A DNA stretch of 64,000 nucleotides, taken from positions 1 through 64,000 of the IMG/VR virus record IMGVR_UViG_3300021167_000128. The stretch is one strand, 5' to 3'. Shown in pieces: positions 6,574-52,073 of this stretch. Source of the stretch: a virus. Lineage: Duplodnaviria; Caudoviricetes. The number at the start of each line of letters is the position of its first letter. Position 1 is the first letter of the stretch. A program made the translations under genes and the position numbers. The notes beneath the pieces are model-generated. The model worked only from the letters and a program-made list of their open reading frames with translations, searched no databases and was not told the origin of the DNA.

Positions 6574-7630
6574 TTTTAAGTAACCAAGTATTAGAAATTA
6601 CCTTAAAAGAAGTTACGTCACGATTATCATAACACGCATCTTCAGTCTTGAATACCCACCCTTCAATATTACTTCCATTGATTTTGGACTTTTCGCCTTC
6701 AACCATCCTTAGAAGATCTTGAATAGTTTCAACTTGAATAACTCGATTCCTTGAAATAATAGGAACATGCTTTAGTCTAAGCGCTTCAACAATACTATAT
6801 CGTTCTTCAGGAGTTAGATACCTACTATCATTTACAGAATATACATCAAATACATAGAAGTCAACCCCCTTAATTCCATACTGATTACCATTAATACCTT
6901 CACCAATAAGTTCCCCTTGGATAGCATAACCTTTCAATCCCTGGTCTTTCATCTTCTGCTCAACATTATACATCACTGCAGCTTTCCAATAAGCGTTATT
7001 CTCTTCAAACTGAAGATCTAGATTACGTGAGCATACATGAAAATTATTATCCATATCAAGATAGAACGAACAACTTGAACCGTTTAATTTTTCAGTAACT
7101 TCCCACTGTTTAGTTTTAATAAAATTAAAATGTTTAGAAAGATTCTGGATACGCTCTTGATCTGTCTTAGGGATTTCAGTATGGAAGTTACCCTTGATTT
7201 TACCACGAAGACAAGCAGGAATAGAAGGTTCCCACTTTACAACGTTTAGAGCTTCTGTTACGTCCATTCCTTCAAATAATTGCTCATTCAAACCAATATT
7301 AAAAGTAACCCAATAATTAATTCTAAATAGAATATCAGCATTGAGTGCTAGAATTAAGCCTTGGCTGAGTTCTTTACGCAGTTTAATACTACGAAGCCGT
7401 TCTCCACTAATATCTTCATAAATCTTAGGTCCATTACCTTTGGACAGGAATGGTGCAATCTCATGAGGAATCCATGAATCAATCTCAAAATAAACCACAA
7501 GTTGATCTTTAGTGAATTCACCCTTCTTAACAACAACCTGCCAATCATTAATCATGGCAAGTTCAAGAGAATCGGCATTAGTATGCGGAAGGATTTCACG
7601 AACTTTTTGAATGCTAGCCATTTTACGCAT
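6566..7630 (-). CDS. ATP-dependent RNA ligase (Rnl2-like family)
   Basis: MRKMASIQ..HTNADSLE N-terminus, FEIDS, SQGL, motif I TEKLNGSS, QGELIG, EGWVFK. Confidence 0.85.
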   Translation of the reverse strand: MRKMASIQKVREILPHTNADSLELAMINDWQVVVKKGEFTKDQLVVYFEIDSWIPHEIAPFLSKGNGPKIYEDISGERLRSIKLRKELSQGLILALNADILFRINYWVTFNIGLNEQLFEGMDVTEALNVVKWEPSIPACLRGKIKGNFHTEIPKTDQERIQNLSKHFNFIKTKQWEVTEKLNGSSCSFYLDMDNNFHVCSRNLDLQFEENNAYWKAAVMYNVEQKMKDQGLKGYAIQGELIGEGINGNQYGIKGVDFYVFDVYSVNDSRYLTPEERYSIVEALRLKHVPIISRNRVIQVETIQDLLRMVEGEKSKINGSNIEGWVFKTEDACYDNRDVTSFKVISNTWLLKNE

Positions 7631-10963: not shown

Positions 10964-11536
10964 ATGAACAAAGATTATATTAAGTCCAATGAATTTCTTA
11001 ACTCGTATGAATGGAGAAAACTACGTCAAGAAGTTCTCCTTAAATATGAGACTAGATGTATGTGCTGTGGAGCAGAACCAAACGGTGAAGTATATCTTTG
11101 CGTAGATCATATTAAGCCAAGAAAGACACACCCTGAACTTGCGCTAGATATTAGTAATCTGCAAATTCTGTGTAATGTGTGCAATCATGGTAAAGGTAAT
11201 TGGCATTGTAAGGACTGGAAGCCTGGAGAAACTTTTATTGTAACTAAGCAGTGGTTGCACAAGAACAAGACTCCGGCAGGAGGCTATACACGCACACAAA
11301 TTGAAGCACTAGGTAACAAGTGGCCTCCTAAATCTGGGTGGCCTAAAAGAGCAATTGGAATTCATATTACTGAGGATCAGCGTAAGATGTTTGAAGATGG
11401 TGCTTTTATTAAAGCTAAACAAAAGAAACAAGAGATTGTTAACCTAACTAGAATCGTATTCCTTGAGAAAGAATTGGAGATTCTAAAGTTAGAAGAGGAA
11501 ATCAAAAGACTAAAGAAGAAACTACTTGACGGTTAA
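10964..11536 (+). CDS. HNH endonuclease with extra C-terminal domain
   Basis: CMCCG...VDHIKP...NLQILCNVCNHGKGN. Confidence 0.85.
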   Translation: MNKDYIKSNEFLNSYEWRKLRQEVLLKYETRCMCCGAEPNGEVYLCVDHIKPRKTHPELALDISNLQILCNVCNHGKGNWHCKDWKPGETFIVTKQWLHKNKTPAGGYTRTQIEALGNKWPPKSGWPKRAIGIHITEDQRKMFEDGAFIKAKQKKQEIVNLTRIVFLEKELEILKLEEEIKRLKKKLLDG

Positions 11537-13077: not shown

Positions 13078-13154
13078 CTGCCGTTAGCTCAATAGGATAG
13101 AGCAAGGGTTTTCTAGTCCCTAGGTTGTGAGTTCAAGTCTTACACGGCAGGCCA
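13078..13154 (+). tRNA. tRNA-Arg(TCT)
   Basis: Cloverleaf: CTGCCGT/ACGGCAG acceptor, loop TTTCTAG, T-loop TTCAAGT, encoded CCA. Confidence 0.9.
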
Positions 13155-13159
13155 AACAC

Positions 13160-13250
13160 AGAAGCATAGTTTAACGGTAAAACAGCGGACTTATACCCCG
13201 TAGCCATAGATAATGGGCTGATCTCGGTTCAACTCCGGGTGCTTCTACCA
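13160..13250 (+). tRNA. tRNA with anticodon TAT (nominally Ile) and a long variable arm, 91 nt
   Basis: AGAAGCA/TGCTTCT acceptor, loop CTTATAC, 21-nt variable region, CTCGG-TTCAACT-CCGGG T-arm, A73, CCA. Confidence 0.85.
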
Positions 13251-13424: not shown

Positions 13425-14726
13425 ATGAAAAACTATATCTGTTTTGTAAACGATCATTCTGGTTCTATGTATGATGTAGTTAATGCAGCTATCAATGACT
13501 ATAATTCCATTATTGAATCTGTAAAGAATGCTGCAACGCGAGAGATGCAAGATACTATTGTTAATACTGTAGGTTTTGGATTTAACCATCCTTCTATTAC
13601 ACGTCAAGTAATTAATTCAAATCCTCACGTTCTAAATCCAGTAATTAGTTGGCCTGCTATGGGACAGACTCCTCTTTATGATGCAATTGGAGATGCTATT
13701 GATCTACTTAAATCTGTTCCTGACTATGACAATTCTAATGTATCTTTCCTTGTGAGTATTACTACTGATGGTGGTGAAAATAACTCTACTAAATATGATA
13801 TGATTAGTATTCGTTTCCTTATTGAACAGCTTCAAGCTTCTGGCCGTTGGACTTTTGTAATTCGAGTACCTACTGGTAACAAAAAGATTGTAGCTAACAT
13901 TGGTATTCCTATAGGTAATATTCAAGAATGGGAAACTACGAATAAAGGTCTTGAAGCTTCTACTGTCAAAACACAATCAGCAGTAGATAAGTTCTTTACT
14001 ATGCGTTCTTCTGGAAGTCGTTCTTCTACTACGTTTTATGCAGATGCAAGCGATGTTGATACTTCTAATCTTGTAGATATTACTTCTGAGATTTCTCTAT
14101 ATGTTGTTCCTGTAGATAAGATGGGGATTGAAATTCGAGATTTTATTCTTGAACACAGAATGGAATACCTAAAGGGTGCTGCATTCTATCAACTGACTAA
14201 AACTGAATCTCGTGTTCAACCTACTAAGCTGATTCTAGTTCGTGATCGAGGTACAGGTAAGATCTATGCTGGTAAGGATGCTCGTAGCATGATTGGTCTT
14301 CCTTCTGATAAGAATGCACGTTTGCATCCTGGTGATCATAAGAACTTTGATATTTTTATTCAGAGTTCTTCTGTAAATCGTAAGCTAGTCGGTGGAACTG
14401 GTGTTGTATATTGGAGTAAGATTGGTGTTCCTTTTACGGATAAGGATCTTGAATATCTAAAGCCGAAAGCTAAAACTGCTGTAGAACTTCCGAAGGTTGA
14501 ACCTACTAACAAGCCTACTAAGAGCCCTATTCCAATAAGTAACAAGGTTCTTAATCCTTCAGTCAATAGTAAGTTTGTTGTATTCTTCACTACTCGTAAA
14601 GAAGCGCGAGAATACAACCAAAGGTATAATCGATCTGGTGTGAAGGATCTATTTATGCTGACTACACAAGAGCTTGCAACTGTTGTTGGTAACACTAGCA
14701 ATAATCGCTGGTTTGTATTTGTTTAA
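13425..14726 (+). CDS. von Willebrand A (MIDAS) domain protein with extra C-terminal domain
   Basis: FVNDHSGSM (DxSxS), GQTPLYDAI, ITTDGGEN. Confidence 0.8.
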   Translation: MKNYICFVNDHSGSMYDVVNAAINDYNSIIESVKNAATREMQDTIVNTVGFGFNHPSITRQVINSNPHVLNPVISWPAMGQTPLYDAIGDAIDLLKSVPDYDNSNVSFLVSITTDGGENNSTKYDMISIRFLIEQLQASGRWTFVIRVPTGNKKIVANIGIPIGNIQEWETTNKGLEASTVKTQSAVDKFFTMRSSGSRSSTTFYADASDVDTSNLVDITSEISLYVVPVDKMGIEIRDFILEHRMEYLKGAAFYQLTKTESRVQPTKLILVRDRGTGKIYAGKDARSMIGLPSDKNARLHPGDHKNFDIFIQSSSVNRKLVGGTGVVYWSKIGVPFTDKDLEYLKPKAKTAVELPKVEPTNKPTKSPIPISNKVLNPSVNSKFVVFFTTRKEAREYNQRYNRSGVKDLFMLTTQELATVVGNTSNNRWFVFV

Positions 14727-14736
14727 TAATTAAAGC

Positions 14737-14764
14737 TTGACTCCAGGCTGAACTGCTGTATAAT
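14737..14764 (+). promoter_or_regulatory. Sigma70-like promoter of tRNA-Leu and the ncRNA array
   Basis: TTGACT-16-TATAAT, overlapped by the inverted repeat GGCTGAACTG/CAGTTCAGCT. Confidence 0.65.
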
Positions 14765-14786
14765 AACTACTTCAGTTCAGCTTATA

Positions 14787-14871
14787 GCCTCTGTGGTGGA
14801 ATTGGTATTCACAAGGGACTTAAAATCCCTCACCGTTAGGTATGTCGGTTCGAGTCCGACCAGAGGTACCA
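14787..14871 (+). tRNA. tRNA-Leu(TAA)
   Basis: GCCTCTG/CAGAGGT acceptor, loop CTTAAAA, variable arm, TTCGAGT, ACCA. Confidence 0.92.
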
Positions 14872-15612
14872 ACAAGTAGAAGAGTTATTTATAGGGCGTC
14901 ATAATATTAGAAAGAAACGAGTGCCGGAGCTTGGATCTGGAGATAGTTATGGCTTTGAGTGGCGACGGTCACTTATAGGGTGGTGGTTCGATCCCCCCCT
15001 CACGCCCTGCAAATAGCTTTTCTACTTGTTGGTGAATGCGCAGGCTGATGCGCCTGTGTGGGATCACACTTGGCTAGTCCATGCCGGAGATCAGCACCGG
15101 CCACCAACAAAGCAGTTCCTCCGTGCTACGGGTTAGGGGTTCCTAGCCGACAAACGGAGGGCCAACATTGAAGCCCTGTGCGCAATAGCGCGCCTCTGGT
15201 ATCCCGGTAGCTGCCGTGAAGCGTGGAAGAGACTTTACTGTCCGTAGCGGGATGGTCAGCCGGTGCCGAGCGCGAAGGTGTCTAAATCCGGTTCGCGTAA
15301 CACAGGGCTTCAATGTTGGTGAATGTGTAGGCTGATACATGCTGTTGAAGTACTAACGTGAAGGCTAAATAAACCACACTATCGGTAAAGCCGGAAGAAG
15401 TCAGTGCCGGCCACCAACAATCTCTCCGGTGGATTGCAGCGGATGGAAGACTGGAAGAAGTCGGGCGTGTCAGTGATGCCGCCCTGTGAGGGACAAAACC
15501 CCGTTCCGGTGGAAGGCCGGGCCAACATTGAAGTACCTTGAGCTGAAAGAAATAGCGGTCAAAGTAAGATGTCGAGCGAAGCTGTGGTCACCCGGAAAAG
15601 TAGCGGGTCAAC
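14872..15612 (+). ncRNA. Array of unidentified structured non-coding RNA modules
   Basis: GC-rich, no credible ORF, two 19-bp stems, two homologous modules with compensatory changes, repeated CCAACA junctions. Confidence 0.75.
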
Positions 15613-15729
15613 AATATTTAATAATCTCACAAATAGTTAAGAATTAACTGCAGTAAAGTCCTACTTAGACTGTAAATAAGTAATCGTAACACATCGTAAT
15701 TATCGTTACTATAACAAAGGAGTAAATAC

Positions 15730-16386
15730 ATGGAAGAAAATAACGTAAATCCTTATGAAAAAATTGAAGGTATGCTGCAATATGTTTGTATCCGGGATGC
15801 AGTCAAAGCTTATCAAAAGCCTGGAACTGACCCTAAGCCGGATGAATGGAAGGTCAGTATTGTTCTTACGGATGAGGATTATGTAGATGCTCTTGAAGAA
15901 TGGGCAACTAAGATTGATTGTAAGCTGTCGCTAAAGAAAGTTAAATCTGCTTCGTTTGAAGAAACTTACAAGACCGCACCTCCAGAAAATGCAGGTAAGA
16001 ATGTGTGGGTCTGGACTCTGCGTAAGAGCGTAGAACTTGGTAAGACAGGTAAGCCCGTTCCTGACAAGTTTAAGCCTAAAGTTTATCAGCGTAAAGGTGC
16101 TACTCTGGTAGATATTACCAATACTGCTCTTGTGGGTAATGGATCTACGGGTGTTGTTAGTACTGATCTATTTGTTCGTAACAACGGTTCTGTTAGTATT
16201 TATCTCAAGAATGTTCTTGTTACGAATCTAATTGAGTGGATTAAAACTGATGCTAGTGATTCTTATGTAGAAGGTTCTGAGTTTGAAGATGTAGTTCAAC
16301 CTCAAGTAGAAGTTAATAAAAACTCTACTAAAACTAAGGTTAAGCAAGAAGATCCTGAAGAAGATCTAGAAGATAGCCCGTTTTAA
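15730..16386 (+). CDS. Single-stranded DNA-binding protein (T7 gp2.5-like)
   Basis: Acidic tail ending in an aromatic residue (EEDLEDSPF); VGNGS motif; replication context. Confidence 0.7.
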   Translation: MEENNVNPYEKIEGMLQYVCIRDAVKAYQKPGTDPKPDEWKVSIVLTDEDYVDALEEWATKIDCKLSLKKVKSASFEETYKTAPPENAGKNVWVWTLRKSVELGKTGKPVPDKFKPKVYQRKGATLVDITNTALVGNGSTGVVSTDLFVRNNGSVSIYLKNVLVTNLIEWIKTDASDSYVEGSEFEDVVQPQVEVNKNSTKTKVKQEDPEEDLEDSPF

Positions 16387-17974: not shown

Positions 17975-18763
17975 GTGAGAGAATCCACCCTTTTATCTGG
18001 AGAAAGTTCTAGCTGTGGTTGCCAGGCAGCTATTAAAGCAGGGAAAAGACTAAGAACTCATGGCCTGTCTAAACACCCTTTATACAATACATGGAAGAAA
18101 ATGCTTTATCGGTGTAATAAAGAAAGTGCTAAGGATTATAAACATTATGGAGGAAGAGGAATTGCGGTATGCAGTAGGTGGAGTCTTAATGGAATTGAAG
18201 GATTTAAAAACTTTCTAGAAGATATGGAGGAATCTTTTGAATATGGTCTTGAATTAGACCGTATTGATGTTAACGGAAATTATGAAAAGGATAATTGCAA
18301 ATGGTCTTCAAGACGGGAACAGGTAATAAATCGCAGACTAATCGGCTCTTATTTCGATACCCATTATTTAGAGTATGATGGTAAAAAACTATGTATGTCT
18401 CAGTGGGCAGATATTACTAGGATTAATAAGCAAATAATTTCAGATAGAATTTCAAAACTTAAGTGGTCTGTTCAAGATGCTTTAACAAAACCAATAAAAC
18501 CACGTGAGACTGTCGTTATTATTGACGAAATTGAATATAAATTGAATGAAGTATTTAAGAATCCTACAAATTTATATACGAAGATTGGTAAAAGATTTAC
18601 CCTTTATCAATATCTATCAAATATGATGAGTGGTTTTGCTACGATTAAAGTCTATTTAAATAAGACTTGGCATGCAATAGATCCAAGTGAGGATAATTCT
18701 GATGAATTATGGAGACACCTATATACGGACAGGTTTAAAAGTATTCTGGAGCAACTCCAATGA
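17975..18763 (+). CDS. Free-standing HNH homing endonuclease (N-terminus possibly truncated)
   Basis: SCGC, HGLS, W..M..RC, YGGRGI.VC, LDRIDVNGNYEKDNCKW. Confidence 0.85.
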   Translation: MRESTLLSGESSSCGCQAAIKAGKRLRTHGLSKHPLYNTWKKMLYRCNKESAKDYKHYGGRGIAVCSRWSLNGIEGFKNFLEDMEESFEYGLELDRIDVNGNYEKDNCKWSSRREQVINRRLIGSYFDTHYLEYDGKKLCMSQWADITRINKQIISDRISKLKWSVQDALTKPIKPRETVVIIDEIEYKLNEVFKNPTNLYTKIGKRFTLYQYLSNMMSGFATIKVYLNKTWHAIDPSEDNSDELWRHLYTDRFKSILEQLQ

Positions 18764-51368: not shown

Positions 51369-51459
51369 TGGCGGAAAATGATAGCATCGAACTATTAACC
51401 CTGCTTAGGTGTTACCACGGTTTTCAAGACCGTTCAGGGAGCCAACCCCGGCATTTTCC
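51369..51459 (-). tRNA. tRNA-Ser(TGA)
   Basis: GGAAAAT/ATTTTCC acceptor, G73, loop CTTGAAA, long variable arm, CCA. Confidence 0.85.
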
Positions 51460-51553
51460 TTTAATTGTATTCGTGAGCAGGATGATTTACAAGGTTAACC
51501 TGCCTGTCCTTGATTTACGGCTATAACATATCACGTACTATCTTACAACTATC

Positions 51554-51730
51554 TTAATTCTTATTAGACAATACTTTTGCCAAGTTCATTGCAGAACTAT
51601 TCCATAAAGGAACATTTGACATTAAAATATTAGCTTGTTCAATTGTATCCATAAGAATTTGATTCTGAATTTTTAAGACTTCAATCTCAGCTTTCAATTC
51701 CTGAATAATAACTTCACTTGCTTTATCCAT
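51554..51730 (-). CDS. Hypothetical coiled-coil protein
   Basis: AAGGA RBS before MDKASE. Confidence 0.5.
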   Translation of the reverse strand: MDKASEVIIQELKAEIEVLKIQNQILMDTIEQANILMSNVPLWNSSAMNLAKVLSNKN

Positions 51731-51766
51731 AATATTATTCCTTATGTTTAATGTAGGACTATTAAT

Positions 51767-51851
51767 TGGTGCGTTTGGAGGGACTTGAACCCACACGCCT
51801 TACGGCAATAATTCCTAAGACTATCGCGGCTACCTATTACGCCACAAACGC
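51767..51851 (-). tRNA. tRNA-Leu(TAG)
   Basis: GCGTTTG/CAAACGC acceptor, loop CTTAGGA, ACCA. Confidence 0.9.
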
Positions 51852-51858
51852 AAAAGTG

Positions 51859-51934
51859 TGGTCTAAGCGGTTGGACTCGAACCAGCGACCATATGCTCCC
51901 AAAGCATATGCGCTACCAACTACGCTACACTTAG
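51859..51934 (-). tRNA. tRNA-Pro(TGG)
   Basis: CTAAGTG/CGCTTAG acceptor, loop TTTGGGA, ACCA. Confidence 0.9.
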
Positions 51935-51999
51935 ACTAATAAACTTTAGTAATTATAATACATTTAGCCACATCAGTTTGCTGGATTTGGTAGGAACTG

Positions 52000-52073
52000 T
52001 GGTGCCTCAGGAGGGAATCGAACCCCCATAAGATGATTACAAGTCATCCGTAATACCTTTATACGACCGAGGC
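52000..52073 (-). tRNA. tRNA-Thr(TGT)
   Basis: GCCTCGG/CTGAGGC acceptor, loop CTTGTAA, ACCA. Confidence 0.88.

Follow-up and report, generated by a model that had tools for sequence, protein, structure and literature searches.

Bacteriophage T4 makes two small stable RNAs that are not transfer RNAs (tRNAs), species 1 and 2 (rnaC and rnaD), which share a transcript with the phage tRNAs, are matured by the enzymes of tRNA processing and have an unknown function. The C4 RNA of phages P1 and P7 and the CI RNA of P4 are cloverleaf-like RNAs that are cut from a leader by RNase P and have complementary copies upstream and downstream of an antisense segment. STnc100 and PasD occur in Salmonella and pathogenic E. 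coli. They are Hfq-associated prophage small RNAs (sRNAs) of barely known function, and they are encoded downstream of Q or stx (bioRxiv 10.64898/2026.05.13.724894; PMC12370729). GOLLD and ROOL are large, ornate, phage-associated RNAs that are often found beside tRNA genes (PMC12286853). Here, we analyzed a 64,000-nucleotide (nt) stretch of viral DNA (Duplodnaviria; Caudoviricetes; positions 1 to 64,000 of IMG/VR record IMGVR_UViG_3300021167_000128), referred to as the window, and in particular the region at 14872–15612, which follows a tRNA-Leu(UAA) gene. We consider it about 60% probable that this region is part of a non-coding RNA operon, consisting of one promoter, the tRNA-Leu(UAA) and a chain of tRNA-mimicking structured-RNA cassettes; the broader proposition, that the region is an RNA cassette array, is very probably correct. 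Comparison of sequences shows conserved RNA families, a connector with two alternative pairings, an association with tRNA genes and horizontal exchange of the cassettes.

The array has a guanine-plus-cytosine content (GC) of 0.536, compared to 0.364 for the genome. In 200-nt segments across 14800–15600, the GC was 0.47–0.60, against 0.28–0.40 in the flanks. The longest open reading frame (ORF) in 14872–15612 encodes 65 amino acids (aa), no ORF was credible, and the four longest small ORFs of the region had no PHROG match. Upstream, a consensus scan predicted a sigma-70-type promoter (TTGACT-16-TATAAT; 14737–14764) that agrees with the consensus at 11 of 12 positions, one of seven such near-consensus sites in the 80.6-kb genome, which ends in direct terminal repeats. 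It is followed by the tRNA-Leu(UAA) gene (14787–14871), which encodes its own CCA and was found both by ARAGORN and by the Rfam tRNA model (56 bits). The promoter, the tRNA and all modules described below are on the plus strand. Our results thus agree with the initial annotation, which had described a GC-rich, ORF-free stretch in an AT-rich genome, directly behind tRNA-Leu and its promoter. It had also seen about six folded modules. The region as a whole does fold far better than shuffled sequence (z = −7.35), as do modules A, B, X and C taken singly (z from −2.7 to −3.0), but we divided the chain into seven segments, denoted A, B, X, C, B', D and E, of which the last three do not fold better than shuffles. 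Rfam returned only tRNA, both at the gathering threshold and at E ≤10. The tRNA model RF00005 (29-bit criterion) had a single match, tRNA-Leu itself (14787–14868), and left modules A–E unmatched at E ≤10. A blastn search of the whole region against named phages gave a match confined to the tRNA. When synteny was sought by way of the flanking proteins, one search found a single truncated relative and another found none.

Module B (15026–15110) is a tRNA-shaped frame. Its closing stem, UGUUGGUG/CACCAACA, is followed by a junction, AAU, the hairpin GCGC-AGGCUGAU-GCGC, a 29-nt insert and a second hairpin, GCCGG-AGAUCAGCA-CCGGC, and the two loops pair with each other over 6 base pairs (bp), GCUGAU/AUCAGC, in a loop–loop kiss. 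Module B' (15313–15420) has ends of the identical type (direct repeats D1 and D2), an AT-rich 50-nt insert and a kiss, GCUGAU/GUCAGU, that includes two wobble pairs. A covariance model, R1, was built from 53 seed sequences, comprising B, B' and 51 sequences from other phages. R1 had exactly two full-model matches in the window, B (81.7 bits) and B' (68.9 bits), a result obtained partly by construction, since both sequences are in the seed. In the family consensus, the closing stem is followed by AAU, a 4-bp hairpin with loop AGGCUGAU and the insert, after which a 5-bp hairpin (loop AGAUCAGCA) adjoins the closing stem. The frame varies in length from 85 to more than 350 nt and the insert from roughly 30 to about 300 nt, and the frame ends are invariant over 28–30 nt in phages of Klebsiella, Pseudomonas, Burkholderia and E. 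coli.

In a more diverse set of sequences retrieved with R1, compensatory changes were found in all four helices, including the kiss. For the frame family, 97.5% of the cells were paired and the covariation was 0.252, compared to 0.109 for shuffled alignments, with none of 500 shuffles as high. The kiss covaried even though it was absent from R1: pair 23/241 was CG 21 times and GC three times, and 97% of kiss cells were paired. As modeled, the B frame has the shape of a tRNA in which the elbow between the D- and T-loops is replaced by six Watson–Crick pairs, and the anticodon arm by the variable insert. At L017:3944–4056 and L042:4126–4238, the insert of the B frame contains a tRNA D-arm and T-arm (GUAGCUCAGUUGGUAGAGC ... 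GGGUUCAAGUCCC) without an acceptor or anticodon stem. In contig L145 (200–250 and 455–578), the hairpin abutting CACCAACA in one variant has a canonical T-loop, GCCGG-UUCGAUU-CCGGC, and another frame carries a compensated kiss, GGUGAU/AUCACC.

The B frame is widespread. Its 23-nt 5' motif occurs in more than 119 IMG/VR contigs, and B-like sequence is present in 216 named phage records, including HK620, Stx2c-converting phages and phages of Klebsiella, Pseudomonas, Burkholderia and Aeromonas, where it is nearly always unannotated or labeled as a hypothetical protein. The HK620-type copy is found in 108 complete E. coli genomes, mostly without annotation (one listed record is a hypothetical protein). 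HK620 and PAJU2 carry the frame in the leader of the late operon, between Q and the lysis genes. In other loci (L152, L010, L017, L019 and L057), the cassettes make up units that run from promoter to terminator. Wherever tRNA genes lie near frames, they are on the same strand, and several are only 5–8 nt from the 3' end of the frame. An Rfam scan of 20 related loci found only tRNA, except for one match to the abiF RNA motif (RF03085, 55 bits; L019:1269–1305), directly 3' of a B frame and overlapping its terminator. A full-text literature search for the frame sequences found no paper. The family is absent from both Rfam 15 and genome annotation, while being present in hundreds of phages.

The modules are joined by the hexamer CCAACA and its complement. 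CCAACA is found at 14869, 15104, 15162, 15414 and 15522, TGTTGG at 15027 and 15314, and the variant TCAACA at 15608, while GGGCCAACATTGAAG occurs at both 15159 and 15519, all exactly where the initial annotation had placed them. There are five copies of CCAACA in 654 nt, compared to 20 in the entire 64 kb, and only about 0.2 would be expected in 654 nt. The first connector consists of the ACCA of tRNA-Leu and the next ACA. The assignment of these motifs to module ends also holds for the connectors, but the second GGGCCAACATTGAAG is better explained as the orphan 5' strand of a C-type stem (see below). Two pairs of complementary arms, 14868–14899/15002–15033 and 15162–15180/15301–15319, have TGTTGG in common with the closing stems of the modules that follow, so that closing stems do overlap and folds compete, as had been proposed.

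UGUUGG is able to pair with a CCAACA on either side: pairing with the preceding copy closes the hairpin cassette, and pairing with the following copy closes the frame. Likewise, CUUCAAUGUUGG (15308) is flanked by complementary copies, one at 15162 and one at 15522. Most other loci have such a hairpin cassette upstream of the frame, with a 3' strand that runs into UGUUGG; its 5' end started with CCAACA in 34, CUAACA in 12 and UCAACA in 10 of 105 loci. Past the connector, the stem sequence differs among phages, yet it stays complementary. Opposite the Gs of UGUUGG, only C-to-U changes were observed, which are compatible with G·U pairs, and the same is true of the 3' strand of the frame itself. 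This restricted variation argues for pairing in the plus-strand RNA on both sides of UGUUGG, and the CCAACA/UGUUGG junction is a feature of the whole frame family. In the window, the hairpin-closed and frame-closed states are 4–5 kcal/mol apart, not counting the kiss, and the frame-closed state costs the hairpins only their lowest 6–8 pairs.

Module C (15162–15319) belongs to a second structured RNA family. An exact 20-mer from C was found in 5 viral and 15 metagenome contigs; four of the viral contigs were true C-type homologues, and the fifth (L129) matched the 20-mer only. (A looser search pattern yielded mostly chance matches in coding sequence.) C could be aligned with 14 other contigs (alignment A3, 15 sequences), and six helices hold, all of which are formed by the copy in the window: a perfect 19-bp outer stem (15162–15180/15301–15319), which starts with CCAACA and ends with UGUUGG, and five inner helices, including a pseudoknot. 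An invariant stretch, GGUGCCGAG...GAAGGUGUCUAAAUCCGGUU, is also present. In the alignment, 88% of the cells were paired, 25 pairs had changed on both sides, and the covariation was 0.283, compared to 0.116 after shuffling; again, none of 500 shuffles was as high. The pseudoknot, in which AGC-NNN-C pairs with G-NNN-G, was 100% paired, with one position GC in eight sequences and AU in seven. A local GCGC-AAUA-GCGC hairpin and a local CGCG/CGCG stem were rejected as unsupported by the relatives, and the long-range, covarying pairings were preferred. Like the frame family, the C family is absent from Rfam 15 and from annotation. The covariation among homologues that the initial annotation had named as a check was thus found in both families. 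In contigs L152 (2601–2935), L144, L146 and L147, C is followed by a different recurring module that starts with UGUUGGUAUUGCAGUAGC; in L152, an intrinsic terminator marks the end of this module, and a pentapeptide-repeat ORF comes next.

Module X (15111–15164) consists of the stem CCUCCGU/ACGGAGG and an inner 7-bp hairpin, followed by G-CCA (z = −3.0), and is a minihelix with a tRNA-like 3' end. Module D (15421–15524) ends in the hairpin CCGG-UGGAAGG-CCGG, then G-CCA, so that X and D both finish in a GC-rich hairpin and G-CCA-ACA. It overlaps a second copy of GGGCCAACAUUGAAG (15519–15533; repeat D3, inverted repeat I6), which can also pair with 15308–15319 and is a 5' strand orphaned from a C-type outer stem; the matching position in contig L144 starts a full C-type module. 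Segment E (15534–15613) is a GC-richer tail that ends in GGGUCAACA. At the other end of the chain, module A (14868–15033; inverted repeat I1) folds as a leader/trailer stem around a cloverleaf-like core. The outer stem has 32-nt arms (14868–14899/15002–15033) that are 88% complementary and is made of the ACCA-ACA tail of tRNA-Leu itself and a sequence ending in UGUUGGU. The core (14892–15012; z = −2.7) has an acceptor-like stem, GGGCGU/ACGCCC, and the T-loop hairpin GGUUCGAUCC. This anatomy resembles that of the M-type modules found ahead of B frames in other phages. The ideas that E is a decayed copy of C and that D is a copy of X were abandoned, as neither similarity was significant after removal of the shared 15-mer. 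ARAGORN calls made at lowered thresholds contradicted each other and were discarded.

The distribution of near-identical sequence suggests how the array was put together. In the 8.5 kb of contig L152 (GC 0.61) that were examined, the only sequence shared with the whole 80.6-kb genome corresponds to 15023–15320, a 298-nt block comprising B, X and C with 99% identity. X and C together are 98% identical in L145, and C alone is 92–99% identical in nine metagenome contigs. Copies of X with 98–99% identity occupy the same place, before a C-type module, in L145, L146 and L152. D is about 97% identical in L144, where it lies between a frame and a complete C-type module, not E. These blocks of identity end at UGUUGG, at GGGCCAACA or at conserved frame halves, which argues that modules have been exchanged between phages. 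Such exchange explains both the presence of a GC-rich island in an AT-rich genome and the orphan second GGGCCAACAUUGAAG. Some modules thus appear to move between unrelated phages as cassettes, and recombination at short conserved sequences would be the simplest mechanism; a site-specific mechanism is also conceivable, but no integrase was found in the genome. If 99% identical, connector-joined modules recur in unrelated phages, then ORF-free, GC-rich stretches beside phage tRNAs may be read as operons of exchangeable RNA parts. Genes for HNH endonucleases (10964–11536 and 17975–18763) flank the region of tRNAs and RNA array, and homing-type endonucleases could help to co-convert neighboring cassettes in a mixed infection.

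In the mechanism that we propose, a single sigma-70-type promoter would drive tRNA-Leu(UAA) and the chain of cassettes: the two kiss-elbow frames (B and B'), the pseudoknotted C, the hairpin-G-CCA modules X and D, and the T-loop-bearing, tRNA-like A within its long leader/trailer stem. The connector would be universal, with every element ending in NCCA-ACA and every frame starting with UGUUGG. During transcription, the hairpin would form first, and the 3' strand of the frame would then displace its lower 6–8 bp, thereby freeing the NCCA tail of the preceding element. Host tRNA-maturation enzymes would release stable small RNAs, with RNase P cutting on the 5' side of acceptor-like stems, either RNase III or RNase E cleaving the long stems, and exonucleases trimming the 3' ends back to CCA. 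These steps were modeled on the known maturation of tRNA and ribosomal RNA in Proteobacteria. An 8+5-bp stack with a U before the G fits the measuring rule of RNase P. The chances that processing takes the course described here seem to us evenly balanced.

The released RNAs might target the host, whether as regulators of the STnc100/PasD kind or as tRNA decoys, a suggestion to which we give a low probability. The link to STnc100 and PasD favors Hfq-type regulators in which the insert does the work. Decoys fit equally well with the large number of NCCA ends, with the invariance of the frame and with the RNA ligase of the phage. A tRNA-mimic arsenal, as the initial annotation had put it, does fit the anatomy of the modules. 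A further, speculative and rather unlikely extension is that these are "plug-and-play" arrays, in which the connector would link any cassettes, order folding and processing through its two pairings and serve as the joint for swapping, and the array would be an arsenal against the tRNA-centered machinery of the host or against tRNA-targeting defenses. If so, the cassettes would constitute a collectable arsenal of decoys or regulators, in a phage that carries an RNA ligase and seven tRNAs.

Several results weigh against the operon of tRNA-mimicking cassettes. A nearest-neighbor fold favors the hairpin-closed state, which opens the frames, and the B frames encode no CCA after the discriminator position. 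The terminator scan found none after the array, so that transcription may read through into the gene at 15730. Taken singly, B' (z = −1.3), D (−0.3) and E (+0.2) fold no better than shuffles. No homologue was found for module A or segment E, even by exact-word search of IMG/VR, and the Rfam tRNA model does not match A. The initial annotation's array of structured RNA cassettes is therefore supported by homologues for B, B', C, X and D and by covariation in the B and C families, but A and E are without comparative support. Between the module interiors and the phage's own genome, complementarity was limited to 10–12 nt, which is chance level, and the STnc100 model RF02076 (gathering threshold 47 bits) had no match at E ≤10 in the region, nor any elsewhere in the genome.

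We considered the possibility that the array is instead a cis-acting, structured leader of the downstream messenger RNA (genes from 15730), exerting control through the competing CCAACA/UGUUGG pairings in the manner of P4 CI (seqA–seqB–seqC), P1 C4 or a put-type antiterminator. The lack of a terminator before the next gene, the complementarity of CUUCAAUGUUGG (15308) to both 15162 and 15522, and the position of the frame in the late-operon leader of HK620 and PAJU2, downstream of Q, are all consistent with this idea. However, the same cassettes precede different downstream genes and are swapped regardless of their neighbors. Elsewhere they form the promoter-to-terminator units listed above or lie within tRNA clusters, and the Rfam C4 model had no match at E ≤10. 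We therefore regard a leader as improbable.

The region could also be what is left of a former tRNA cluster, whether decayed tRNA genes or neutral debris, without a function of its own, given that tRNA-Leu adjoins it, that A contains tRNA-like stems and a T-loop, that D and E fold poorly, and that E follows an orphan half-stem. Debris is very hard to reconcile with frame ends that stay invariant across phages of such different hosts, with compensatory changes in every helix, with 92–99% identity across unrelated contigs, or with the failure of the tRNA model to match any module.

In integrons, attC sites have an inverse-core/core arrangement, which the layout of the connector resembles (CCAAC...GUUGG compared to RYYYAAC...GTTRRRY). 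The array might accordingly be a DNA-level element, a set of attC-like recombination sites or sites like those of miniature inverted-repeat transposable elements, whose conservation would reflect recombination rather than RNA function; the ending of identity blocks at connectors or adjacent conserved frame halves agrees with this. However, the C-to-U changes give G·U pairs on the plus strand and A·C mismatches on the other, the strand is always that of the neighboring tRNA genes, and covariation is seen in both the kiss and the pseudoknot. The connector is one base short of the attC core, and the genome has no tyrosine integrase (PF00589). We give DNA-level elements, attC-like sites included, even less credence than debris. 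Least likely of all is an assembly chimera, in which GC-rich reads of another phage were joined through the conserved frame sequences. The sequence does come from a metagenome, and 99% identity links its 298-nt block to a GC-rich contig that shares nothing else in the 8.5 kb examined. However, a single contig with direct terminal repeats at its ends would have to contain two chimeric joints; module A makes its stem from the 3' end of tRNA-Leu itself; A, B' and E occur in this genome alone and are intermediate in GC; and isolated phages, among them Klebsiella phage Magnus, have comparable arrays next to tRNAs.

The wider genome contains seven tRNA genes (13078–13250, 14787–14871 and 51369–52073) with the anticodons UCU, UAU, UAA, UGA, UAG, UGG and UGU. 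All seven encode CCA and read codons ending in A or U; no gene for a CCA-adding enzyme was found. The tRNA-Ile(UAU) (13160–13250), 91 nt in length, carries a long extra arm, an unusual feature in a tRNA for isoleucine. These tRNAs, together with cassettes held in common with GC-rich contigs, suggest an AT-rich lytic phage infecting a host of higher GC. An Rnl2-type RNA ligase domain (PF09414, 110 bits) is encoded at 6596–7108 on the minus strand, within an open frame of 358 aa, and a phage with such a ligase may repair cleaved RNAs.

Among the known RNAs, the bacterial Y RNA (YrlA, RF02553) was not matched at E ≤10. Like GOLLD and ROOL, the array is a large, GC-rich, structured non-coding RNA beside phage tRNAs, with kissing-loop contacts and unknown function; unlike them, it consists of modules that are separately conserved and exchanged, not one RNA, and the GOLLD and ROOL models of Rfam had no match in the window. 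The topology of C4 and CI is matched by the elements at 15162, 15308 and 15522, but there is no C4 match in Rfam, no immunity context and, in this phage, no integrase. Transfer-messenger RNA (tmRNA) likewise has a tRNA-like frame with a large, structured, pseudoknotted insert. The modules described here differ from it in having no G3·U70 pair, no CCA encoded on the frames and no tag reading frame. The tmRNA models (RF00023, RF01849 and RF04321) had no match at E ≤10 in 14600–15800, and ARAGORN found none.

Just upstream of the B frame in HK620 and Magnus, there are weak matches to tmRNA models. Those in HK620 (E 0.05–0.09) lie about 200 nt upstream, in the late-operon leader, where a tmRNA-tag-like frame, GCA AAC GAA GAA ATG TAT CTG GCC GTA GCT TAA (ANEEMYLAVA*), is found between pR'/qut and the tQ terminator (L123:2276–2310). 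In Klebsiella phage Magnus, the weak matches are part of a stretch of about 3 kb upstream of tRNA-Met and tRNA-Arg (L124:1475–4414) that is annotated as ten hypothetical proteins of 31–72 aa and also contains a long-insert B frame and a match to STnc100. This stretch is probably a non-coding RNA array annotated as genes. As with T4 species 1 and 2, RNAs other than tRNAs are found alongside the phage tRNAs, a likeness drawn from description, Rfam having no family for the T4 RNAs. T4 has two fixed RNAs, however, whereas here there is a chain of exchangeable cassettes with a common connector.

STnc100 is among the closest known systems. In Magnus, RF02076 matches with 52.9 bits about 1.3 kb from the B frame, within the same non-coding region, and R1 aligned end-to-end with this STnc100 copy at 19.5 bits in a 321-nt search with filters off (with default filters, nothing was found). 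The printed STnc100 consensus appears to share the frame of B, with an 8-bp closing stem ending in UGGUG, followed by AAU and a 4–5 bp hairpin with an 8-nt loop. Its 5-bp hairpin, CCGGG-AGGCA-CCCGG, abuts CACCA, as does GCCGG-AGAUCAGCA-CCGGC in B. We found no paper that describes STnc100 as tRNA-shaped. B frames differ in their longer 3' loop, which forms the 6-bp kiss, and in being chained behind a tRNA with other cassettes; furthermore, STnc100 has a Rho-independent terminator of its own, whereas no terminator-like site was found after B or B'. While the initial annotation was correct that no family could be recognized, as far as Rfam is concerned, the modeled structures suggest that B lies outside RF02076 but is structurally related to STnc100. 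In the lambdoid phages HK620 and PAJU2, the B frame occupies the niche of STnc100, downstream of Q. STnc100 and PasD would thereby be linked to a much larger, tRNA-shaped superfamily, and the function of these two sRNAs would become testable in standard laboratory phages.

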